UHGV virus genome: UHGV-0319381
Length of the DNA stretch: 7,118 bases
Strand: one strand, 5' to 3'
DNA from: a virus
How positions within the stretch are numbered: the stretch's first letter is position 1; each line of letters begins with the position of its first letter. The notes under the pieces are model-generated. The model was not told the origin of the DNA. It saw only the letters and a list, made by a program, of their open reading frames with translations, and searched no databases. Both the position numbers and the translations under genes were made by a program. Shown in pieces: positions 247-7,118 of this stretch.

Positions 247-371
247 TAAAGAGGGGGTAAAACGTGAGCAGAGCAATGAACAAACTGAGCGATACCTTGC
301 TAAGGAAACTTCATGGTAAGCCAGCGGAGAAAAACACGTTTTATAGTGATGGCGGAAACCTGAGCGTGAAA
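247..371. repeat. Right arm of the perfect inverted repeat (int RBS plus first 36 codons)
   Basis: Exact reverse complement of 1-125. Confidence 0.9.
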
Positions 372-1493
372 TATTTAACATCAGGGAAATTGACCTGGTA
401 TTTCACATACAGGGCCGGAACGGGAAGGGAGACACGACCCGAACGCATTAAGCTGGGAAGTTATCCTGATCTGAGCCTGAAAGCAGCCAGGGAAAAAGCC
501 GCACAGTGTCGCACATGGCTGGCTGAGGGGAAAAATCCACGTCATGAGATGAATTACACCGTACAGGAAGCGTTAAAGCCCGTAACGGTTGGCGATGCGC
601 TCACCTACTGGCTTGAGTCTTACGTAAAGGAAAACCGCGTGGATTATATCGCCCTGAAAAGGCGACTTAATAATCACGTAATACAGCAGATTGGTGCTAT
701 GCCGCTGGATAAATGCGAGCTACGGCACTGGCTGGCCTGTTTTGACCAGGTGGCAAAGCGAACGCCTGTTACTGCCGGATTCGTGCTACAGGCGTGCAAA
801 CAGGCGCTTAAGTTCTGCCGTAGGCGGCGCTATGCAATCAGCAACGTTCTGGACGATCTGAACGTGGCGGACGTTGGGAAAAAACCGGATATAAGCGAAC
901 GTGTCTTAAGTAACAAAGAACTTGGCGAATTATTGCAGGCACTGGACAAAAAAATATTTTCCCCTTACTACGTCGCGTTAATCCGCCTCCTGATTGTCTT
1001 CGGAGCCAGGACGGTAGAACTGAGGCTATCGGAGATCGGGGAGTGGGATTTTACGGAAATGCTATGGACCGTTCCGAAGGAGCACAGCAAAACGAAGGTC
1101 GCAATATTCCGGCCCATACCGGAAGCGATCCTGCCGTTCGTCACGCAGCTGGTGGAGCAGAACAGGCACACGGGCTTATTGCTGGGGGAAGTGAAACAGG
1201 AGGCCAGCGTATCGCAGTATGGAAGATTAGCGCACAGGAGGCTTAATCATCCTCACTGGTCACTGCATGACATCCGGCGCACCTTTACAACCATGCTGAA
1301 CGATTTAGGCGTTGATCCGCATGTCGTGGAGCAGCTTACAGGTCATCAGATGCCAGGAATGCAGCGAGTTTATAATCATTCCCGTTATCTGGATGCTAAA
1401 CGCAATGCGCTGGATATGTGGATGGAGCGGTTAGGGATACTGGCGGGAACACATGAAAACGTAACCACGCTACCAGTAGCCAGAAGAAAATAA
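264..1493 (+). CDS. int: Site-specific tyrosine integrase, P4-type (409 aa)
   Basis: GTG start with GAGGGGG RBS 6 nt upstream. The N-terminus (KLSDT...GGNLSVKYLTSGKLTWYFTYR) aligns by eye with the N-terminal arm-binding region of CP4-57 IntA-like integrases. C-terminal tyrosine-recombinase signatures are present: ARTVELR, HDIRRTF, and Tyr in VYNHSRYLD. Confidence 0.9.
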   Translation: MSRAMNKLSDTLLRKLHGKPAEKNTFYSDGGNLSVKYLTSGKLTWYFTYRAGTGRETRPERIKLGSYPDLSLKAAREKAAQCRTWLAEGKNPRHEMNYTVQEALKPVTVGDALTYWLESYVKENRVDYIALKRRLNNHVIQQIGAMPLDKCELRHWLACFDQVAKRTPVTAGFVLQACKQALKFCRRRRYAISNVLDDLNVADVGKKPDISERVLSNKELGELLQALDKKIFSPYYVALIRLLIVFGARTVELRLSEIGEWDFTEMLWTVPKEHSKTKVAIFRPIPEAILPFVTQLVEQNRHTGLLLGEVKQEASVSQYGRLAHRRLNHPHWSLHDIRRTFTTMLNDLGVDPHVVEQLTGHQMPGMQRVYNHSRYLDAKRNALDMWMERLGILAGTHENVTTLPVARRK

Positions 1494-1510
1494 TTTTTTT
1501 CGTGTTTTTT

Positions 1511-1526
1511 CAGTATGCGCATACTG
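1511..1526. repeat. Perfect 16-bp palindrome CAGTATGCGCATACTG just downstream of int
   Basis: Self-complementary 8+8 bp; preceded, not followed, by T-runs, so not a canonical intrinsic terminator on the + strand. Confidence 0.7.
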
Positions 1527-1532
1527 GATATG

Positions 1533-1586
1533 CGAACAGATACAACATGCAACAATGAGCAACAATGCGGAACAACTACGAACAAG
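1533..1586. repeat. Helically phased AACAA-type repeats (6 units at about 10-bp spacing), including GCAACAATG x2
   Basis: AACAGA, ACAACA, AACAAT, AACAAT, AACAAC, AACAAG recur about every 10 bp; GCAACAATG at 1549-1557 and 1559-1567. Confidence 0.6.
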
Positions 1587-1680
1587 AGACGAAAAAGTGT
1601 ACGGATTTATAAGTAGCTGATTTTTAATGTGTTACTGGTTTTTTATACACTAGCGAATCACTCTTTAAATAGCGAGAAAA

Positions 1681-1707
1681 AAGGCATGAAACAATATTTT
1701 ATGCCTT
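1681..1707 (-). terminator. Possible intrinsic terminator (7-bp stem AAGGCAT/ATGCCTT, 13-nt loop), better formed on the minus strand
   Basis: On the minus strand the hairpin is followed by TTTTTCT; on the plus strand it is followed by TGTATT only. Confidence 0.25.
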
Positions 1708-1867
1708 TGTATTAACATGAATTTAAATGATTTTATCCTGATTATTCCTGTTTCTGTAAACCATACGACCTCAACATTTGCCAACTCTGAATCATCCTGA
1801 CACAATCAGACACATCCCAACGCAATAGAACACGAAATAACTCTTTAAGAAACGAAAGGGGGCAATA

Positions 1868-2056
1868 GTGTTAAGCACTGATCGGTTTATACGTGAAAAA
1901 GAATGCGAAAAGCTAACAGGCCTTAGCCGCTCATGCCGCTACCGCCTGGAAAAGGCCGGACAATTCCCATCACGTCGTAAACTTGGCGGTCGTTCCGTTG
2001 GCTGGTCTTTATCCGAGGTTCTGGCCTGGAAGGATAGCTGCAAGGCAGTTCATTAA
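1868..2056 (+). CDS. alpA: AlpA-family transcriptional regulator / excisionase-like DNA-binding protein (62 aa)
   Basis: GTG start with GGGGG RBS 5 nt upstream. The sequence (LTGLSRSCRYRLEKAGQFPSRRKLGGRSVGWSLSEVLAWK) matches the AlpA pattern (TG..R...Y......FP....LG..SVGW...E...W) and sits directly downstream of int, as in P4-like and PICI elements. Confidence 0.85.
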   Translation: MLSTDRFIREKECEKLTGLSRSCRYRLEKAGQFPSRRKLGGRSVGWSLSEVLAWKDSCKAVH

Positions 2057-2202
2057 TCACGCTGGCGGCACACAGCCGCCACACATCAATCATCTGAACA
2101 CAGAGCTATAACCATGAAGATTGAATATACGCCAGAACGTGGGCGGGGATTCGTTCGCCCTGGTGAGACTGGAAAACCACAAAATTGGGGTTTTTCAGGC
2201 AT

Positions 2203-2230
2203 AAAAAAAGCGGCCCCGAAATGGAGCCGC
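2203..2230 (-). terminator. Probable intrinsic terminator for the minus-strand RHH/57-aa cassette (possibly bidirectional)
   Basis: Stem GCGGC (2210-2214) pairs with GCCGC (2226-2230); on the minus strand it is followed by a T7 run (complement of A-run 2203-2209). It lies about 95 bp past the minus-strand stop at 2326. Confidence 0.4.
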
Positions 2231-2325
2231 CTTTCTGAACAGATAACACGCTGCGCCGTTTGTGTGTGTGATCCCAAACATAAGCACGGGGATGATAGCC
2301 GCTATCAGGCTGGTGGGCAATGCAA

Positions 2326-2499
2326 TCAGTCTGGTTCAGTTCGTTGCCATACCTGCAATGAGCGCTTTTCCCTGTACTCTTTAAGGAATTGCTCAAGGGC
2401 AAAAGCACATGGCGCGAATCTTTCTGATTCATGCTCTATCTTTCTGCGCCGTCTTTTCCGTGCCGGTGATAATGTTTTGGTCAATTCTTTATCGGTCAT
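2326..2499 (-). CDS. Hypothetical small basic protein (57 aa, MTDKELTKTLSPARKRRRRKIEHESERF...)
   Basis: ATG at 2499 with AGGA 7 nt upstream; same strand as and 57 bp downstream of the RHH gene; followed by the terminator-like hairpin. An alternative start at 2514 gives 62 aa. No family recognised. Confidence 0.3.
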   Translation of the reverse strand: MTDKELTKTLSPARKRRRRKIEHESERFAPCAFALEQFLKEYREKRSLQVWQRTEPD

Positions 2500-2556
2500 T
2501 GTGTTGTCCTGCATAGCAATGCGCCGTAATACCTCACACCACGGCGCTGATAGTGA

Positions 2557-2862
2557 TTATTCTGATTCTTTGGCCTTGCGGCGCTGTAGTTCTTCACGAG
2601 CGATGGCGATAAGTTGCCCGAGTTCTTCCGTAGCTTTAATACCAATTTTTTCCACTTGCGCCAATGCATCGAGAGAAGAAATCAGAGGATTTTCACTGCT
2701 TCCTTCTGCCTGGCGGCGGGCGATCTCCCCGCGCATGGCGGTTACTATGAATCCGGCGTTGCTTTCGCCGTCCAGTTTTACGGATTCCATGCCATCAAAA
2801 GCATCATGTGGGATACGAATTGAAATCTGTTTTGATTTGTCGTTGATAGTGTTTTTTGCCAT
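2557..2862 (-). CDS. Arc/Mnt-like ribbon-helix-helix DNA-binding protein, candidate repressor (101 aa)
   Basis: ATG at 2862 with AGGAGA RBS 6 nt upstream (complement of 2869-2874). The N-terminus KQISIRIPHDAFDGMESVKLDGESNAGFIVTAMRGEI fits the RHH pattern of a beta-strand with R-x-P followed by two helices. It is divergent from the rightward operon, with operators between them. Confidence 0.55.
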   Translation of the reverse strand: MAKNTINDKSKQISIRIPHDAFDGMESVKLDGESNAGFIVTAMRGEIARRQAEGSSENPLISSLDALAQVEKIGIKATEELGQLIAIAREELQRRKAKESE

Positions 2863-2884
2863 GTGCATTCTCCTAAACAAAAGA

Positions 2885-2960
2885 TGTGATTCAGTATACA
2901 CAAAAAAGAATCACAAAAAACACTTGACCTGTGATTCAGTTGAATTTAATTTAAATCACA
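2885..2960. promoter_or_regulatory. Divergent promoter/operator region: two copies of a palindromic operator TGTGATTCAGT-N-(G/A)AATCACA flanking a TTGACC -35 box
   Basis: Operator 1: TGTGATTC 2885-2892 with GAATCACA 2908-2915. Operator 2: TGTGATTC 2930-2937 with AAATCACA 2953-2960. The two are 45 bp apart. TTGACC at 2924-2929, then 17 bp to TAATTT at 2947-2952, so operator 2 overlaps the putative rightward promoter. Confidence 0.45.
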
Positions 2961-3049
2961 CCTCAGTAAGAGGATGTAAACGACAACGCCCCGAACTGTT
3001 TGCGGCAGTAGCGGGGCGTCTAACCAAACCGTTAACAGGAGTAACGATT

Positions 3050-3247
3050 ATGGCTGGAACACAGCATACCCCACGTCTGGCGCACACACAAACTGCCTTT
3101 GTGTGGCGTTTTCTGGCACTAAGTGCCGGAGAATCTCAAATCATCCACGTAACCGCCTGGACGGAACGCGAAGCGCGTAGCCGTTGCCCGTCCGGTTGTG
3201 TTGCTGTATTCGCCGCCCGTATTCGTCAGGGGTCACATCATGCGTAA
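3050..3247 (+). CDS. Small protein paralog A (65 aa) with FVWRF...TEREAR...ARIRQG..HA motifs; possibly the Icd-like/Ash-like small-protein family of P4-like elements (name uncertain)
   Basis: ATG at 3050 with ACAGGAG RBS and 8-nt spacer. Paralogous to 3534-3704. It is the only part of the long 2114-3247 ORF that looks coding. Confidence 0.55.
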   Translation: MAGTQHTPRLAHTQTAFVWRFLALSAGESQIIHVTAWTEREARSRCPSGCVAVFAARIRQGSHHA

Positions 3248-3533
3248 AAACCGCTTGCAAAAAATTATCACGGGGCTGTATGCTTCCCCCGTCGCCCACA
3301 TGGCGACCGGGTTTGACAGCCTGAATACTACAGCGGACAGCCGCTTACATTCCGATATGCGGTTTTTTTGTGTCCGTAAACCTACCCATACCCGCATTAT
3401 GGCGGGGCGTAACGGGGGAGCCTTTGCGCTCGCTGGTTCCTGTAGTGCCAGTCTGTCAACCCTGTTACGTCTCGCCACCATGTTTGACAGCGTAGTAGCG
3501 AGACTCCTTAATTTCACTACAGGAGCCTTTCAC

Positions 3534-3704
3534 ATGGCTGTATTCGCACGCCCTTATTTTGTCTGGCGCTTTATGCAGTGCCTGACAGACAGCATTGCAA
3601 TATTCACCGTTACCGCTGCCACTGAGCGCGAAGCACGTGCACAGCTGCCGCACGCACATCTGATTTTTGTCGCCCGTATTCGTCAGGGGGTGTGCCATGC
3701 CTGA
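3534..3704 (+). CDS. Small protein paralog B (56 aa) with the same FVWRF...TEREAR...FVARIRQG..HA motifs
   Basis: ATG at 3534 with identical ACAGGAG RBS and 8-nt spacer; shares a 19-bp identical stretch (GCCCGTATTCGTCAGGGG) with paralog A. A possible TTGACA-N17-CTTAAT promoter lies at 3484-3512. An alternative in-frame start at 3240 (154 aa) is not excluded. Confidence 0.55.
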   Translation: MAVFARPYFVWRFMQCLTDSIAIFTVTAATEREARAQLPHAHLIFVARIRQGVCHA

Positions 3705-4017
3705 TATGTCAAATTACCAGTACCTGATTAATCCGCATTTTAACTGTGAGCATGATATTGCTAAAAAAGTTTATTCCGCTGCGGATGGGGCTACTGACAA
3801 TATATCAATGGCTGTTGCGTCAATTGGTAGCCTGATGTGGCATGCGTCAGAAAATGAGGACTATGACGAAAAGGCCATGCGCATTGATATGGGTAATATT
3901 GGTTTGTTACTGGCAATGCTTGGACATTTTGATATTTCGTTACGGTGCACCATTGGAAATGCCACAGATGCATTAAATGCTATAAAGAAAGCGAATACTG
4001 ATTCAAATCGGGGATAA
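3697..4017 (+). CDS. Hypothetical protein (106 aa)
   Basis: ATG at 3697 with GGGGG RBS 6 nt upstream; start overlaps the stop of paralog B (ATGCCTGA). No family recognised. Confidence 0.5.
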   Translation: MPDMSNYQYLINPHFNCEHDIAKKVYSAADGATDNISMAVASIGSLMWHASENEDYDEKAMRIDMGNIGLLLAMLGHFDISLRCTIGNATDALNAIKKANTDSNRG

Positions 4018-4023
4018 ATAATC

Positions 4024-4323
4024 ATGAGAGCGTATTTATCTGGCTTTACTGCCAGCGGTTATGCACACCCCAAAATTATCCCCGGCGCTATTTATCTGGA
4101 TAAGAACGGTAACAGAGTAACGGTAAAAGAACTGATGTTTGACCGTGTGTATTTTATTCGTGATGGCTATTCATTTCATAGTTCGCTGAACGTGGAGATC
4201 TTTATTAGCAGATTCCGGCGGGAAATCCCGCTTTCCAGAAATAACCATGTGTCATGTATGGATGTTGATAAAAAACTACAGGAACTGAAAAACATGATTG
4301 CCGCGTGGAGAGAGCAGAAATGA
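4024..4323 (+). CDS. Hypothetical protein (99 aa) immediately upstream of, and translationally coupled to, the alpha-like gene
   Basis: ATG at 4024 with GGGGA RBS about 9 nt upstream; its TGA stop overlaps the ATG of the next gene (ATGA at 4320-4323). Confidence 0.5.
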   Translation: MRAYLSGFTASGYAHPKIIPGAIYLDKNGNRVTVKELMFDRVYFIRDGYSFHSSLNVEIFISRFRREIPLSRNNHVSCMDVDKKLQELKNMIAAWREQK

Positions 4324-6137
4324 AAAAAGCGCCAAATTTAAAACACCAGCCGCGTGACAAAATGACGGAAGTCATCATTTTTGCGGGTAGTGATGCGTGG
4401 GCACATGCGAAGCAGTGGCAGGAACAGGACGGGCGACTGGCTGGCGATAACGTGCCACCTGTCTGGCTTGGAGAGCAACAACTTGCCGAACTGGACAACC
4501 TGCAAATCGTACCGGACGGACGCTATCGCGTGCGTCTCTACCAGGCGGGGTTATTGCGTCCGGGGCTTGTTAATACCATCGGGCAGAAACTGGCAGCGGC
4601 AGGTGTCAGGGATGCTGATTATTACCCTGAAGGAATGCACAGCCAGAAACGGGAGAACTGGCGCGAATATCTGGAACGTGAGCGGGGAGAGCTGGCGGAA
4701 AAGAAAAAGGTAGTTGAACTGCCTGTAAAGAAAAAAGAGCGGGTAAAAGACGATAACGCTTCATCACTGGCGCTTAACCAGATGGGAGCAAGTCAACGCG
4801 GCGAAGTTCTCCTGGCACATTATGGCGGTGAACTGGCGATTCATGCTGACTCTGACACTGTTCACTATTACAACGGCGTTGTATGGGAGCCAGTACAGGA
4901 TAAAGAATTACAGCGAGCTATGGCGCAGATTTTCATTGATGCGGAGATCAGCTATTCGCAGAACGCCATTAAATCGGCGGTCGATACCATGAAGTTAAGT
5001 TTGCCTGTAATGGGGAATACAGCCCGTAACCTGATTGGATTCAGTAACGGTGTTTTTGATACCCGGACAGGCGATTTTCGGGAGCATAACAAAAACGACT
5101 GGTTGTTAATTGCCAGTGAATTACCTTTCAGCCCACCAGCAGAGGGGGAAACGCTGGCAACACATGCGCCGAATTTCTGGAAGTGGTTACGCCGTTCGGT
5201 GGCTGAGAATGACCGCAAGGCGGATCGCGTACTGGCTGCATTATTCATGGTGCTGGCGAACCGGTACGACTGGCAGTTATTCATTGAGGTAACAGGTCCA
5301 GGGGGAAGTGGTAAAAGCGTGATGGCGGAGATTTGCACCATGCTGGCGGGTAAGGCCAACACGGTATCGGCAAGCATGAAGGCGCTGGAAGATGCCAGGG
5401 AACGCGCGTTAGTGGTTGGCTTTTCGCTGATTATCATGCCGGATATGACCCGTTACGCTGGTGATGGCGCAGGAATTAAGGCCATTACAGGCGGTGACAA
5501 GGTGGCAATCGACCCGAAGCATAAAGCCCCCTACTCAACACGCATTCAGGCGGTAGTGTTGGCGGTGAACAATAACGCCATGTCATTCAGTGACCGCAGC
5601 GGGGGGATTTCACGTCGTCGGGTGATATTCAATTTTTCGGAGGTTGTACCGGAAAACGAACGCGACCCCATGCTGGCAGAAAAAATAGAAGGAGAGCTGG
5701 CGGTTGTGATTCGCCACCTGCTTACTCGTTTTTCTGACCAGGACGCAGCTAAACGCCTGCTGTATGAGCAGCAGAAATCAGAAGAAGCTCTGGTGATAAA
5801 ACGCGAGGGCGATTCGCTGGTGGACTTCTGCGGCTATCTCATGTCGTCGGTAATGTGTGATGGTCTGTTAGTGGGTAATGCCGAAATTATTCCGTTCAGT
5901 CCGCGCAGGTATCTTTATCACGCCTATCTGGCATATATGAGGGCACACGGATTCGGTAAACCTGTAACACTGACGCGCTTCGGTAAAGATATGCCGGGGG
6001 CAATGGCGGAATATGGCAGGGAGTATATGAAACGGAAAACGAAGCACGGTTTGCGTTCAAACGTGACACTGACGGAGGAATCAGAAGACTGGATGCCATC
6101 ATGTGTATCGGTCACTAATGACGACAGCAAAAATTAA
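4320..6137 (+). CDS. P4 alpha-like replication protein: SF3-type helicase / phage-plasmid primase P4-family C-terminal region (605 aa)
   Basis: ATG at 4320 with GGAG RBS; an alternative GTG at 4305 gives 610 aa. Walker A VTGPGGSGKS at about residues 325-333 and Walker B-like hydrophobic-D (LIIMPD). A long C-terminal region is followed immediately by TGTTCACC iterons. The N-terminal roughly 300 aa carry no primase signature I can recognise by eye. Confidence 0.8.
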   Translation: MKKAPNLKHQPRDKMTEVIIFAGSDAWAHAKQWQEQDGRLAGDNVPPVWLGEQQLAELDNLQIVPDGRYRVRLYQAGLLRPGLVNTIGQKLAAAGVRDADYYPEGMHSQKRENWREYLERERGELAEKKKVVELPVKKKERVKDDNASSLALNQMGASQRGEVLLAHYGGELAIHADSDTVHYYNGVVWEPVQDKELQRAMAQIFIDAEISYSQNAIKSAVDTMKLSLPVMGNTARNLIGFSNGVFDTRTGDFREHNKNDWLLIASELPFSPPAEGETLATHAPNFWKWLRRSVAENDRKADRVLAALFMVLANRYDWQLFIEVTGPGGSGKSVMAEICTMLAGKANTVSASMKALEDARERALVVGFSLIIMPDMTRYAGDGAGIKAITGGDKVAIDPKHKAPYSTRIQAVVLAVNNNAMSFSDRSGGISRRRVIFNFSEVVPENERDPMLAEKIEGELAVVIRHLLTRFSDQDAAKRLLYEQQKSEEALVIKREGDSLVDFCGYLMSSVMCDGLLVGNAEIIPFSPRRYLYHAYLAYMRAHGFGKPVTLTRFGKDMPGAMAEYGREYMKRKTKHGLRSNVTLTEESEDWMPSCVSVTNDDSKN

Positions 6138-6151
6138 ACTTATGGAATAAC

Positions 6152-6378
6152 TGTTCACCACTGTTCACCCTGTTATAAATATCTTTTATATCAGTATATT
6201 ATATGGTGAACAGTTATTTGTGAACTGTTCACCAAACTATTCACTGTTCACCTTTTTGATTATTTATTGAGCTTTAAGGGTGAACAGTGGTGAACAGTTG
6301 GTGAATAGTTTTTGTGAAACTGTTCACCCCTTAACATTATGAATAAAAAGGGAAAATCTCAAAAGGTGAACAGGTGAA
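6152..6378. repeat. Iteron array, putative origin of replication (crr/ori-like): about 11 copies of TGTTCACC in both orientations around an AT-rich core
   Basis: Forward TGTTCACC at 6152, 6162, 6226, 6245, 6321. Reverse GGTGAACA at 6205, 6279, 6289, 6365, with degenerate copies at 6300 and 6373. Several copies sit at 10-11 bp phasing. AT-rich stretch at 6171-6204. Confidence 0.75.
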
Positions 6379-6424
6379 GGGTTAAAATGCAAAAATTTTA
6401 TTTTATTGCTGTGAGGTAAAGCCT

Positions 6425-6670
6425 GTGACAACGAAGCACGCAAAAAAACCACAATCTCACGCCCTTGATTTGACAGAACACTGGCTGAGGGTGGCGATAA
6501 AAATCATCGACCGCAACGCGGGAGAAGGGTACGCAAAAGCACATCCCGAACTGATAAGCGCATTCATGACCACGGCGGCAGCAAACTTTGCCACGCTGAC
6601 AGAACGGGAGATTGCCGAAGCGGAACAGGTGACAACCATCAACGTTAAAACCGGAGAGCAGACAGCATGA
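6425..6670 (+). CDS. Hypothetical protein (81 aa)
   Basis: GTG at 6425 with GAGG RBS 8 nt upstream; stop overlaps the start of the following SSB-like ORF (ATGA at 6667-6670). No family recognised. Confidence 0.4.
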   Translation: MTTKHAKKPQSHALDLTEHWLRVAIKIIDRNAGEGYAKAHPELISAFMTTAAANFATLTEREIAEAEQVTTINVKTGEQTA

Positions 6671-7118
6671 CAGCACAGATAGCGGCTTACGGGCGGCTGG
6701 TGGCTGACCCGCAGTTAAAGACCACCAGCAAAGGGACACAAATGGCGATGGCGAGTATGGCGGTTCCCCTGCCGTGCAGCCAGGCAGATGACGGAACGGC
6801 GACGATGTGGTTATCTGTCCTGGCGTTTGGCAGACAGGCCGACGCACTGGCAAAACACCACAAAGGCGAACTGGTGAGCGTGGCGGGTAACATGCAGGTG
6901 AGCCAGTGGACAGGCCAGAACGGGGAAACGCGGCAGGGCTGGCAGGTTATTGCAGACAGCGTAATCAGTTGCTTAAAACGGTATGTTATCCCCGTACGGA
7001 TCAACATTTCCCGCCTGTTGTTTTGCCCTGTTCAGCGCGTCAGTAGCCTGGCCCTGTTGAGCTTTTTTGCCGCCCGGTCGCGCCGTTCGCGCACTGATTA
7101 CGCTGTCTGCAATAACCT
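6667..7118 (+). CDS. SSB-like OB-fold single-stranded DNA-binding protein, 3'-partial (runs off the window)
   Basis: ATG at 6667 with GGAG RBS. IAAYGRLVADPQLKTTSKGTQMAMASMAV...WLSVLAFGRQADALAKHHKGELVSVAGNMQVSQWTGQNGETRQGWQVIADSV aligns by eye with the bacterial SSB OB-fold pattern (VGRLG.DPE.R.T..G...A.F..A...W....A.G..AE.A..YL.KGS.V...G.L....W.D..G..R....V.A). No stop before the window end; the region after the OB fold is atypical (hydrophobic/basic rather than Gly-rich acidic tail). Confidence 0.55.
   Translation, partial: MTAQIAAYGRLVADPQLKTTSKGTQMAMASMAVPLPCSQADDGTATMWLSVLAFGRQADALAKHHKGELVSVAGNMQVSQWTGQNGETRQGWQVIADSVISCLKRYVIPVRINISRLLFCPVQRVSSLALLSFFAARSRRSRTDYAVCNN

Follow-up and report, generated by a model that had tools for sequence, protein, structure and literature searches.

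Gene content of the window

The window analyzed here is the whole 7,118-nt stretch of DNA of UHGV virus genome UHGV-0319381. Between positions 247 and 6969 it is identical at 6723 of 6723 positions (BLAST) to nucleotides 3823-10545 of an E. coli chromosome, UGBV01000003.1, which serves as our reference locus L006. The first four genes below are named through this 100% identity, and the remaining features come from a repeat search, the list of open reading frames and the comparison with the native ssb gene.

264-1493: tyrosine integrase (Phage_integrase)
1868-2056: AlpA-type regulator (Phage_AlpA)
4024-4323: DUF4222 protein
4320-6137: D5_N/DUF5906/Pox_D5 primase
6136-6375: iteron field, between the primase stop and the 81-aa gene
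6425-6670, + strand: 81-aa gene with a GTG start
6667-6969, + strand: ssb codons 1-101, the OB-fold domain, collinear with native ssb and 100% identical to L006 up to L006 position 10545

The primase (a 610-aa ORF) begins at a GTG at 4305 in the ORF list and at 4320 in the annotated relatives. In the iteron field, the motif (T)GGTGAACAGT(T) is repeated at least 10 times, with copies in both orientations (repeat families D1, D3, and D4; inverted pairs I1 and I3-I25). The origin of Gram-negative PICIs has been described downstream of pri (PMC10111431), and we take the iteron field to be the putative PICI origin. A promoter and terminator scan of 6050-7118 returns no + strand promoter-like site and no terminator.

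The element was earlier discussed with P4 as the frame of reference. The two share an integrase, an AlpA-type regulator, a large primase-type replication protein, and a C4/CI-type antisense RNA, and De Sousa et al. have pointed out that int, AlpA, and primase alone do not separate P4-like elements from PICIs (PMC10085698). The window element differs from P4 in having no sid-delta-psu capsid-size operon and in its D5_N/DUF5906/Pox_D5 primase, and its relatives carry their own capsid and terminase genes. Under the criteria of PMC10085698, neither the psu-delta-sid operon nor the epsilon/ash derepressor is annotated in the L006 counterpart or in 11 other relatives, a result that refers to annotation only. 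By the PICI criteria of PMC10111431, int, alpA, and pri are co-oriented and the origin lies 3′ of pri, as given by the identity to L006 and the iterons. Phage late genes downstream, the lack of tail and lysis genes, and a length of about 10-15 kb are seen in the relatives only; the window stops at ssb. In L006, ssb is followed by Phage_cap_E (a lambda-E-type capsid), HDPD decoration, and Phage_Nu1 genes, while three other loci (L001, L004, and L008) have HK97 capsid, protease, portal, HNH, and terminase genes downstream, which is the cf-PICI type. Judged by its identity to L006 and its gene content, the element is a Gram-negative PICI of E. coli and not P4. Positions 6425-7118 hold the last two genes of the PICI replication module, the 81-aa gene and ssb. 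The module of primase, origin, 81-aa gene, and ssb is found by megablast in 1746 of 5426 complete E. coli genomes, about a third.

The 81-aa protein

The 81-aa ORF upstream of ssb is real, and the earlier statement that its product has no recognizable family stands for Pfam and NCBIfam and falls for PHROGs. The protein itself has no Pfam or NCBIfam match, and 61 members of its family yield no meaningful match. It belongs to PHROG 1231 (phrog_1231, E = 1.4e-49), a family of unknown function. An exhaustive HMMER search recovers 202 cluster representatives at E ≤ 1e-3, a profile search gives 396 proteins, all of them without names, and the assembly collection lists exactly this 81-aa protein in 2271 blocks. 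A tblastn search against 50,697 phage records finds nothing. The family core reads ID..fG.GYAKaHPEL.AAFM.TAA.DF, with Asp29, Gly33, Gly35, Ala37, His40, Pro41, and Leu43 invariant. AlphaFold2 predicts a helical hairpin composed of helices at residues 9-32 and 41-80 with a turn between them (mean pLDDT 79.8, 94-96 in the core). Foldseek finds no match to this model in the PDB, and in BFVD it retrieves uncharacterized phage proteins only, at E ≥ 0.15.

In all 10 loci inspected, the 81-aa gene lies between the iterons and ssb, directly upstream of ssb with an ATGA overlap. Four loci with distant homologs are early regions of prophages or integrative islands, where the gene is found beside int/Exc, between AlpA and a DUF927 primase, or beside IS elements, and none of the four has an SSB next to it. 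Since the distant homologs have no adjacent SSB, only the enterobacterial PICI clade pairs the gene with ssb, and PHROG 1231 is more aptly called a family of small early-region proteins from integrative elements. Our best guess for the 81-aa protein, made with low confidence, is a dimer that serves as adaptor or regulator for the replication/regulatory module. That it might be a dedicated partner of the satellite SSB is an unlikely, weaker possibility.

The SSB domain and its apparent C-terminus

The ssb ORF starts at the ATG at 6667, where ATGA overlaps the stop codon of the 81-aa gene, and meets no stop before the window ends (150 codons). The gene is translationally coupled to the 81-aa gene. 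The assignment of an SSB OB fold to this ORF is confirmed by several searches. Pfam SSB (PF00436) covers residues 5-99 with E = 4.2e-16 and 59.3 bits against a gathering cutoff of 26; NCBIfam TIGR00621 gives 60.9 bits, above its cutoff of 53.95; and phmmer matches 27 solved SSB chains at E ≤ 0.0024, including that of E. coli (1eqq). BLASTP against E. coli SSB gives 26% identity over 100 residues. In this provisional alignment, Trp48, Phe54, and Trp81 lie opposite Trp54, Phe60, and Trp88, the position of Trp40 is not aromatic, and His55 is replaced by Leu.

After residue 101, the + strand frame reads CLKRYVIPVRINISRLLFCPVQRVSSLALLSFFAARSRRSRTDYAVCNN. The earlier note had described this tail as hydrophobic and basic, with no sign of the usual linker and acidic tip. 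The composition is as stated (GRAVY +0.24, pI 11.2), though only for the + strand reading, and it is no property of a protein. In megablast, 1746 of the 5426 complete E. coli genomes match 6380-7118, with identities reaching 99.8%, and yet none of the 5426 has a record that covers the stretch in full: every collinear match stops at 6969. The reverse complement of 6960-7118 is 98.7% identical to the annotated 3′ ends of ssb in two relatives, L002 and L006, and those genomes have this 3′ end joined directly, and collinearly, to the OB-fold part. The features of this region are:

6968-6971: right fold-back junction 6969/6970, with two bases common to both sides (GT on the + strand, AC on the − strand)
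7092-6976, − strand: true ssb codons 102-140 (ARTARPGGKKAQQGQATDALNRAKQQAGNVDPYGDNIPF), from translation of the flipped segment, followed by a TAA stop at 6975-6973
7093-7118, − strand: inverted second copy of ssb codons 93-101 (6944-6969), 26 nt, 100% complementary

Positions 6968-7118 are the reverse complement of L006 10520-10670 with two mismatches, a block of exactly 151 nt. The two BLAST segments overlap by 2 nt at the junction, which amounts to 2 nt of microhomology with ssb codon 101. Across the point that corresponds to 6969, the native sequence runs ...GTAATCAGT (ending ...ATCAGT) and continues with GCGCGAACGG. Positions 6970-6972 and the shared 6968-6969 are the five native bases that follow the ssb stop. 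Beyond TAAGCAAC the native strand goes on with GAGTAAC, whereas the minus strand of the window goes on with TGATTAC. In relatives, the native sequence past the ssb stop is GCAACGAGTAACAG... The 26-nt copy forms a perfect inverted repeat (I2; 6944-6969 and 7093-7118) whose second arm ends at the last base of the window.

The sequence follows ssb as far as codon 101, then jumps about 125 nt ahead to land 5 nt past the native stop. From there it returns on the opposite strand, passing through the real linker and tip (6970-7092), and re-enters the OB-fold region as the inverted copy (7093-7118). Because of this fold-back at 6969/6970, the + strand tail is the antisense of the real SSB tail. The “atypical C-terminus” is an antisense reading of a typical SSB linker and tip and is no protein feature. 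Likewise, the ORF is not merely partial at 7118, continuing beyond the window as had been assumed; the true end of ssb is already inside the window, inverted.

Flipping 6970-7092 onto codons 1-101 restores a 140-aa SSB that ends in ...DPYGDNIPF and differs at two residues from WP_000126638.1, the annotated SSB of many E. coli genomes. Compared with L006, the whole window has just two substitutions; they lie at 7004 and 7061, inside the inverted tail. They change Gly to Ala in GGKKGQQ and Asp to Val in DDPYGD, and both residues are invariant in 12 relatives. The exact window tail with both substitutions occurs in no complete E. coli genome, the best match being 98.7%. By our own estimate, finding 2 substitutions in 123 nt and 0 in 6969 nt has a probability of about 3e-4 by chance. 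Private substitutions at invariant residues make the loop look like poorly supported sequence.

A second fold-back at the left-hand end

The other end of the window is built in the same way. Positions 1-125 are the reverse complement of 247-371, where int starts, and form a 125-nt inverted repeat with 100% complementarity; positions 126-246 are the native 121 nt upstream of int, inverted. Together, 1-246 are the reverse complement of L006 3702-3947 at 100% identity. The junction at 246/247 is blunt, with 0 nt of microhomology, and the native sequence across this point reads ...CACTTTTTCG followed by TAAAGAGGGG. The loops measure 121 nt on the left and 123-125 nt on the right, and the inverted blocks 246 nt and 151 nt, respectively. 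The window is therefore a native 6.7-kb segment in which each end runs into the next ~121-125 nt backwards and then into itself on the other strand.

Neither 6969/6970 nor 246/247 occurs as a junction in any of the 5426 complete E. coli genomes. In exact searches, a 23-mer across the right junction is absent from IMG/VR and from JGI metagenome contigs, and a 30-mer across the left junction, for which IMG/VR was the sole set searched besides the complete genomes, is absent from IMG/VR. The single GTDB match to the right junction 23-mer is a chance hit in a contig of a Clostridia MAG with unrelated flanks.

Origin of the fold-backs

Two readings would keep the tail as biology of the ssb gene, and neither agrees with the native locus. 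A programmed inversion of 6970-7092 between the 26-nt repeats, giving SSB two alternative C-termini, might be suggested by the perfect repeat around a 123-nt segment and by a reading frame that is open in both states. The relatives have no downstream repeat arm, though, and so offer no substrate for inversion; the right arm in the window is merely the re-entry into ssb, running off the end. The same kind of fold-back is present at the other end, inside int, the island has no invertase and no recombinase gene besides the integrase, and the flipped state is found in 0 of the 1746 genomes that carry the module. With the second arm missing from the native locus and the flipped state seen in no genome, we exclude such a switch, to which we had given next to no credence. 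We give scarcely more to a genuine SSB-fold protein whose hydrophobic and basic extension serves a different function, as the earlier note had allowed. The + strand ORF does run through 150 codons without a stop until the window ends, but the extension is the exact antisense of the canonical SSB tail, no homolog with such a tail is annotated among the relatives, and the frame, if the inverted copy is continued, closes after 194 residues of antisense sequence. Comparison of the two strands refutes this reading.

Very probably, both fold-backs are technical chimeras formed at the ends of a contig or an amplified molecule and are not part of the genome structure. Candidate causes would be a template switch while the DNA was amplified, or a mate read attached in the wrong orientation. 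We favor a technical origin because both window ends are affected and the junctions are absent from the public sets searched, and also because the private substitutions are confined to the loop, the right block is exactly 151 nt, and multiple displacement amplification (MDA) offers a precedent. Reads of 151 nt are of a common length. Inverted chimeras that join nearby sequences of the same molecule are the main MDA artifact, with short or no complementarity at the join, often 2-21 nt (Lasken & Stockwell 2007, PMC1855051). The window resembles these chimeras in its inverted joins of nearby sequence, although it differs in the blunt end-to-end join at one junction and in the near-equal size of its two loops. 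An appended mate read that was left unflipped fits the right 151-nt block only, and the sizes of loops and blocks are tied to no specific assembler or library protocol. Two observations speak against a technical origin: the near-equal loop sizes fit no specific protocol, and the folded segment holds the island origin and primase, as a replication fold-back in vivo would need. [quoted passage not shown] In an ODIRA-like event, leading-to-lagging template switches at both forks of the bubble at the island origin would yield either a hairpin-capped (“dog-bone”) linear mini-replicon that reaches from int to ssb codon 101, or else a duplication or triplication in inverted orientation; one ssb copy would be a truncated fusion and the inverted copy intact. 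The geometry is suitable. An origin segment lies between two fold-back junctions with single-copy loops, as in ODIRA, with the iterons at 6136-6375 and the primase gene inside 247-6969; both junctions have the shape expected of such a strand switch, going forward to a point, ~120 nt ahead, and then back; the loops are nearly equal in size; and experiments in yeast support both the model and its hairpin-capped intermediate (Brewer et al. 2015, PMC4689423). We nevertheless consider real fold-backs in the source cells unlikely. ODIRA junctions form at pre-existing short inverted repeats, and these are absent here, the complementarity being 0 on the left and 2 nt on the right; the mechanism is established in yeast and not for a bacterial satellite; and no such junction appears in the 5426 complete genomes or the public contig sets searched. 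The origin is placed very asymmetrically, with ~0.6 kb to the nearer junction and ~5.9 kb to the farther one, the two private substitutions at invariant residues suggest low-quality sequence in the loop, and the prior that terminal fold-backs in assemblies are artifacts is high. Less likely again is the specific scenario in which both forks switch after induction and leave a hairpin-capped linear or inverted-dimer mini-replicon from int through ssb codon 101, a form that has never been described for a PICI.

The native satellite SSB

As far as its sequence and those of its relatives tell, the native protein is a canonical short SSB of bacterial type, 140 aa long, with the usual disordered linker and tip. 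A disordered linker with a tip of the D-I-P-F type is encoded on the minus strand at 7092-6976 and lies collinear with the OB fold in relatives, and it is absent from the + ORF as read; the C-terminus is ...PYGD[NG]IPF in 11 of 12 relatives. The claim that the protein has no usual linker and acidic tip is thereby overturned, since the native gene ends in ...DPYGDNIPF on the opposite strand of the window.

The closest comparison is with the SSBs of Gram-negative PICIs and cf-PICIs of E. coli (for example, WP_000126638.1, 140 aa, and WP_000126639.1, 141 aa), which PGAP names “single-stranded DNA-binding protein.” They have the same OB-fold part, the same position after a D5-type primase, iterons, and the 81-aa gene, and the same ATGA overlap; the window differs from them only by the inverted 3′ end and the two private substitutions. 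E. coli chromosomal SSB (P0AGE0; 1eqq) has the OB fold, the disordered linker, and the ...IPF tip in common with the satellite protein, but is 178 aa long as against 140 aa. Its linker is G/Q/P-rich, whereas that of the satellite SSB has ~30 residues and is Q/K/A-rich, and its tip is MDFDDDIPF compared with DPYGDNIPF. Among 50,697 phage records, no SSB reaches 32% identity to the satellite lineage.

The suggestion of an accessory replication gene has held up and can now be placed in a phage satellite. SSB is already listed together with primase/DUF5906 in the replication category of Gram-negative PICIs (PMC10111431). Our literature search for experimental work on a PICI SSB found none, only mentions at the level of classification. 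Upon induction by a helper phage and excision, the D5-type primase/helicase may open the adjacent iteron origin, and the island SSB, to go by its family and the position of its gene, would coat the exposed ssDNA like other bacterial SSBs. Its ...DNIPF tip could then recruit the host replisome and the repair and restart proteins, as ...DDDIPF of host SSB does.

Implications

For the reading of similar loci, the case carries a caution: a protein at a contig end with an “unusual C-terminus” calls for a look at terminal inverted repeats before any biological meaning is read into it. In E. coli, moreover, an island with int, alpA, and primase is a PICI more often than it is P4. Neither gene of 6425-7118 is out of the ordinary; both belong to a known satellite replication module and are annotated already. 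What retains interest is the 81-aa family, which is uncharacterized and widespread, together with the small chance of a real double fold-back around the origin. If the fold-backs were real, they would document template switching at replication forks on a satellite replicon.

Window ends and ssb alleles

Only two differences separate the 7118-nt window from L006, the E. coli chromosomal locus in UGBV01000003.1, at positions 7004 and 7061. Both lie inside the inverted tail, where the 3' end of ssb is attached backwards, and both are non-synonymous (G→A and D→V). The residues that they alter are invariant in 12 relatives, and the substitutions are found in no complete E. coli genome.

The 23-nt probe spanning the right fold-back junction has an exact match in an AT-rich Clostridia MAG contig (L017, CAZRCE010000041.1, 4146-4168); an estimated ~0.02 chance matches are expected in 596 Gb. 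The sequence flanking this match is unrelated to the window; the match is due to chance.

Complete genomes do hold tip-less ssb alleles, as shown by the following natural variant:

L009 (BPVI01000001.1) 10243-10605: ssb variant of 120 aa

Here the A-run GGCAAAAAAGG carries a frameshift, so that linker and IPF tip are lost and the protein ends in …GGKKVNRARPLTH*. The L009 allele thus arises by a different route from that of the window.

A fold-back is also present at the left-hand end:

1-371: left fold-back, in which 1-125 matches 247-371 (int start) perfectly as its reverse complement

Between these two arms, a 121-nt loop carries, in inverted form, the sequence natively upstream of int; the 246|247 junction is blunt. 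Because this end is a fold-back, ORFs and promoters called in 1-246 are suspect.

Regulatory zone and putative origin

Three further features lie within the island:

3278-3327 and 3395-3482, + strand: C4 antisense RNA (Rfam, 72.3 bits) with its a1/b1 target (Rfam, 46.8 bits)
2114-3247, + strand: mechanical ORF of 377 aa, overlapping the region of the C4 RNA as well as several ORFs on the opposite strand
6136-6375, both orientations: dense iteron field, (T)GGTGAACAGT(T), at least 10 copies

The 377-aa ORF is probably not a gene; its counterpart in relatives is either left uncalled or listed as a hypothetical protein marked incomplete. The iteron field follows the stop codon of the primase gene and precedes the 81-aa gene; we take it to be the island origin. 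The C4 RNA and its a1/b1 target constitute a P1/P4-type immunity RNA system in the regulatory zone of the island, which probably contributed to the P4 impression.
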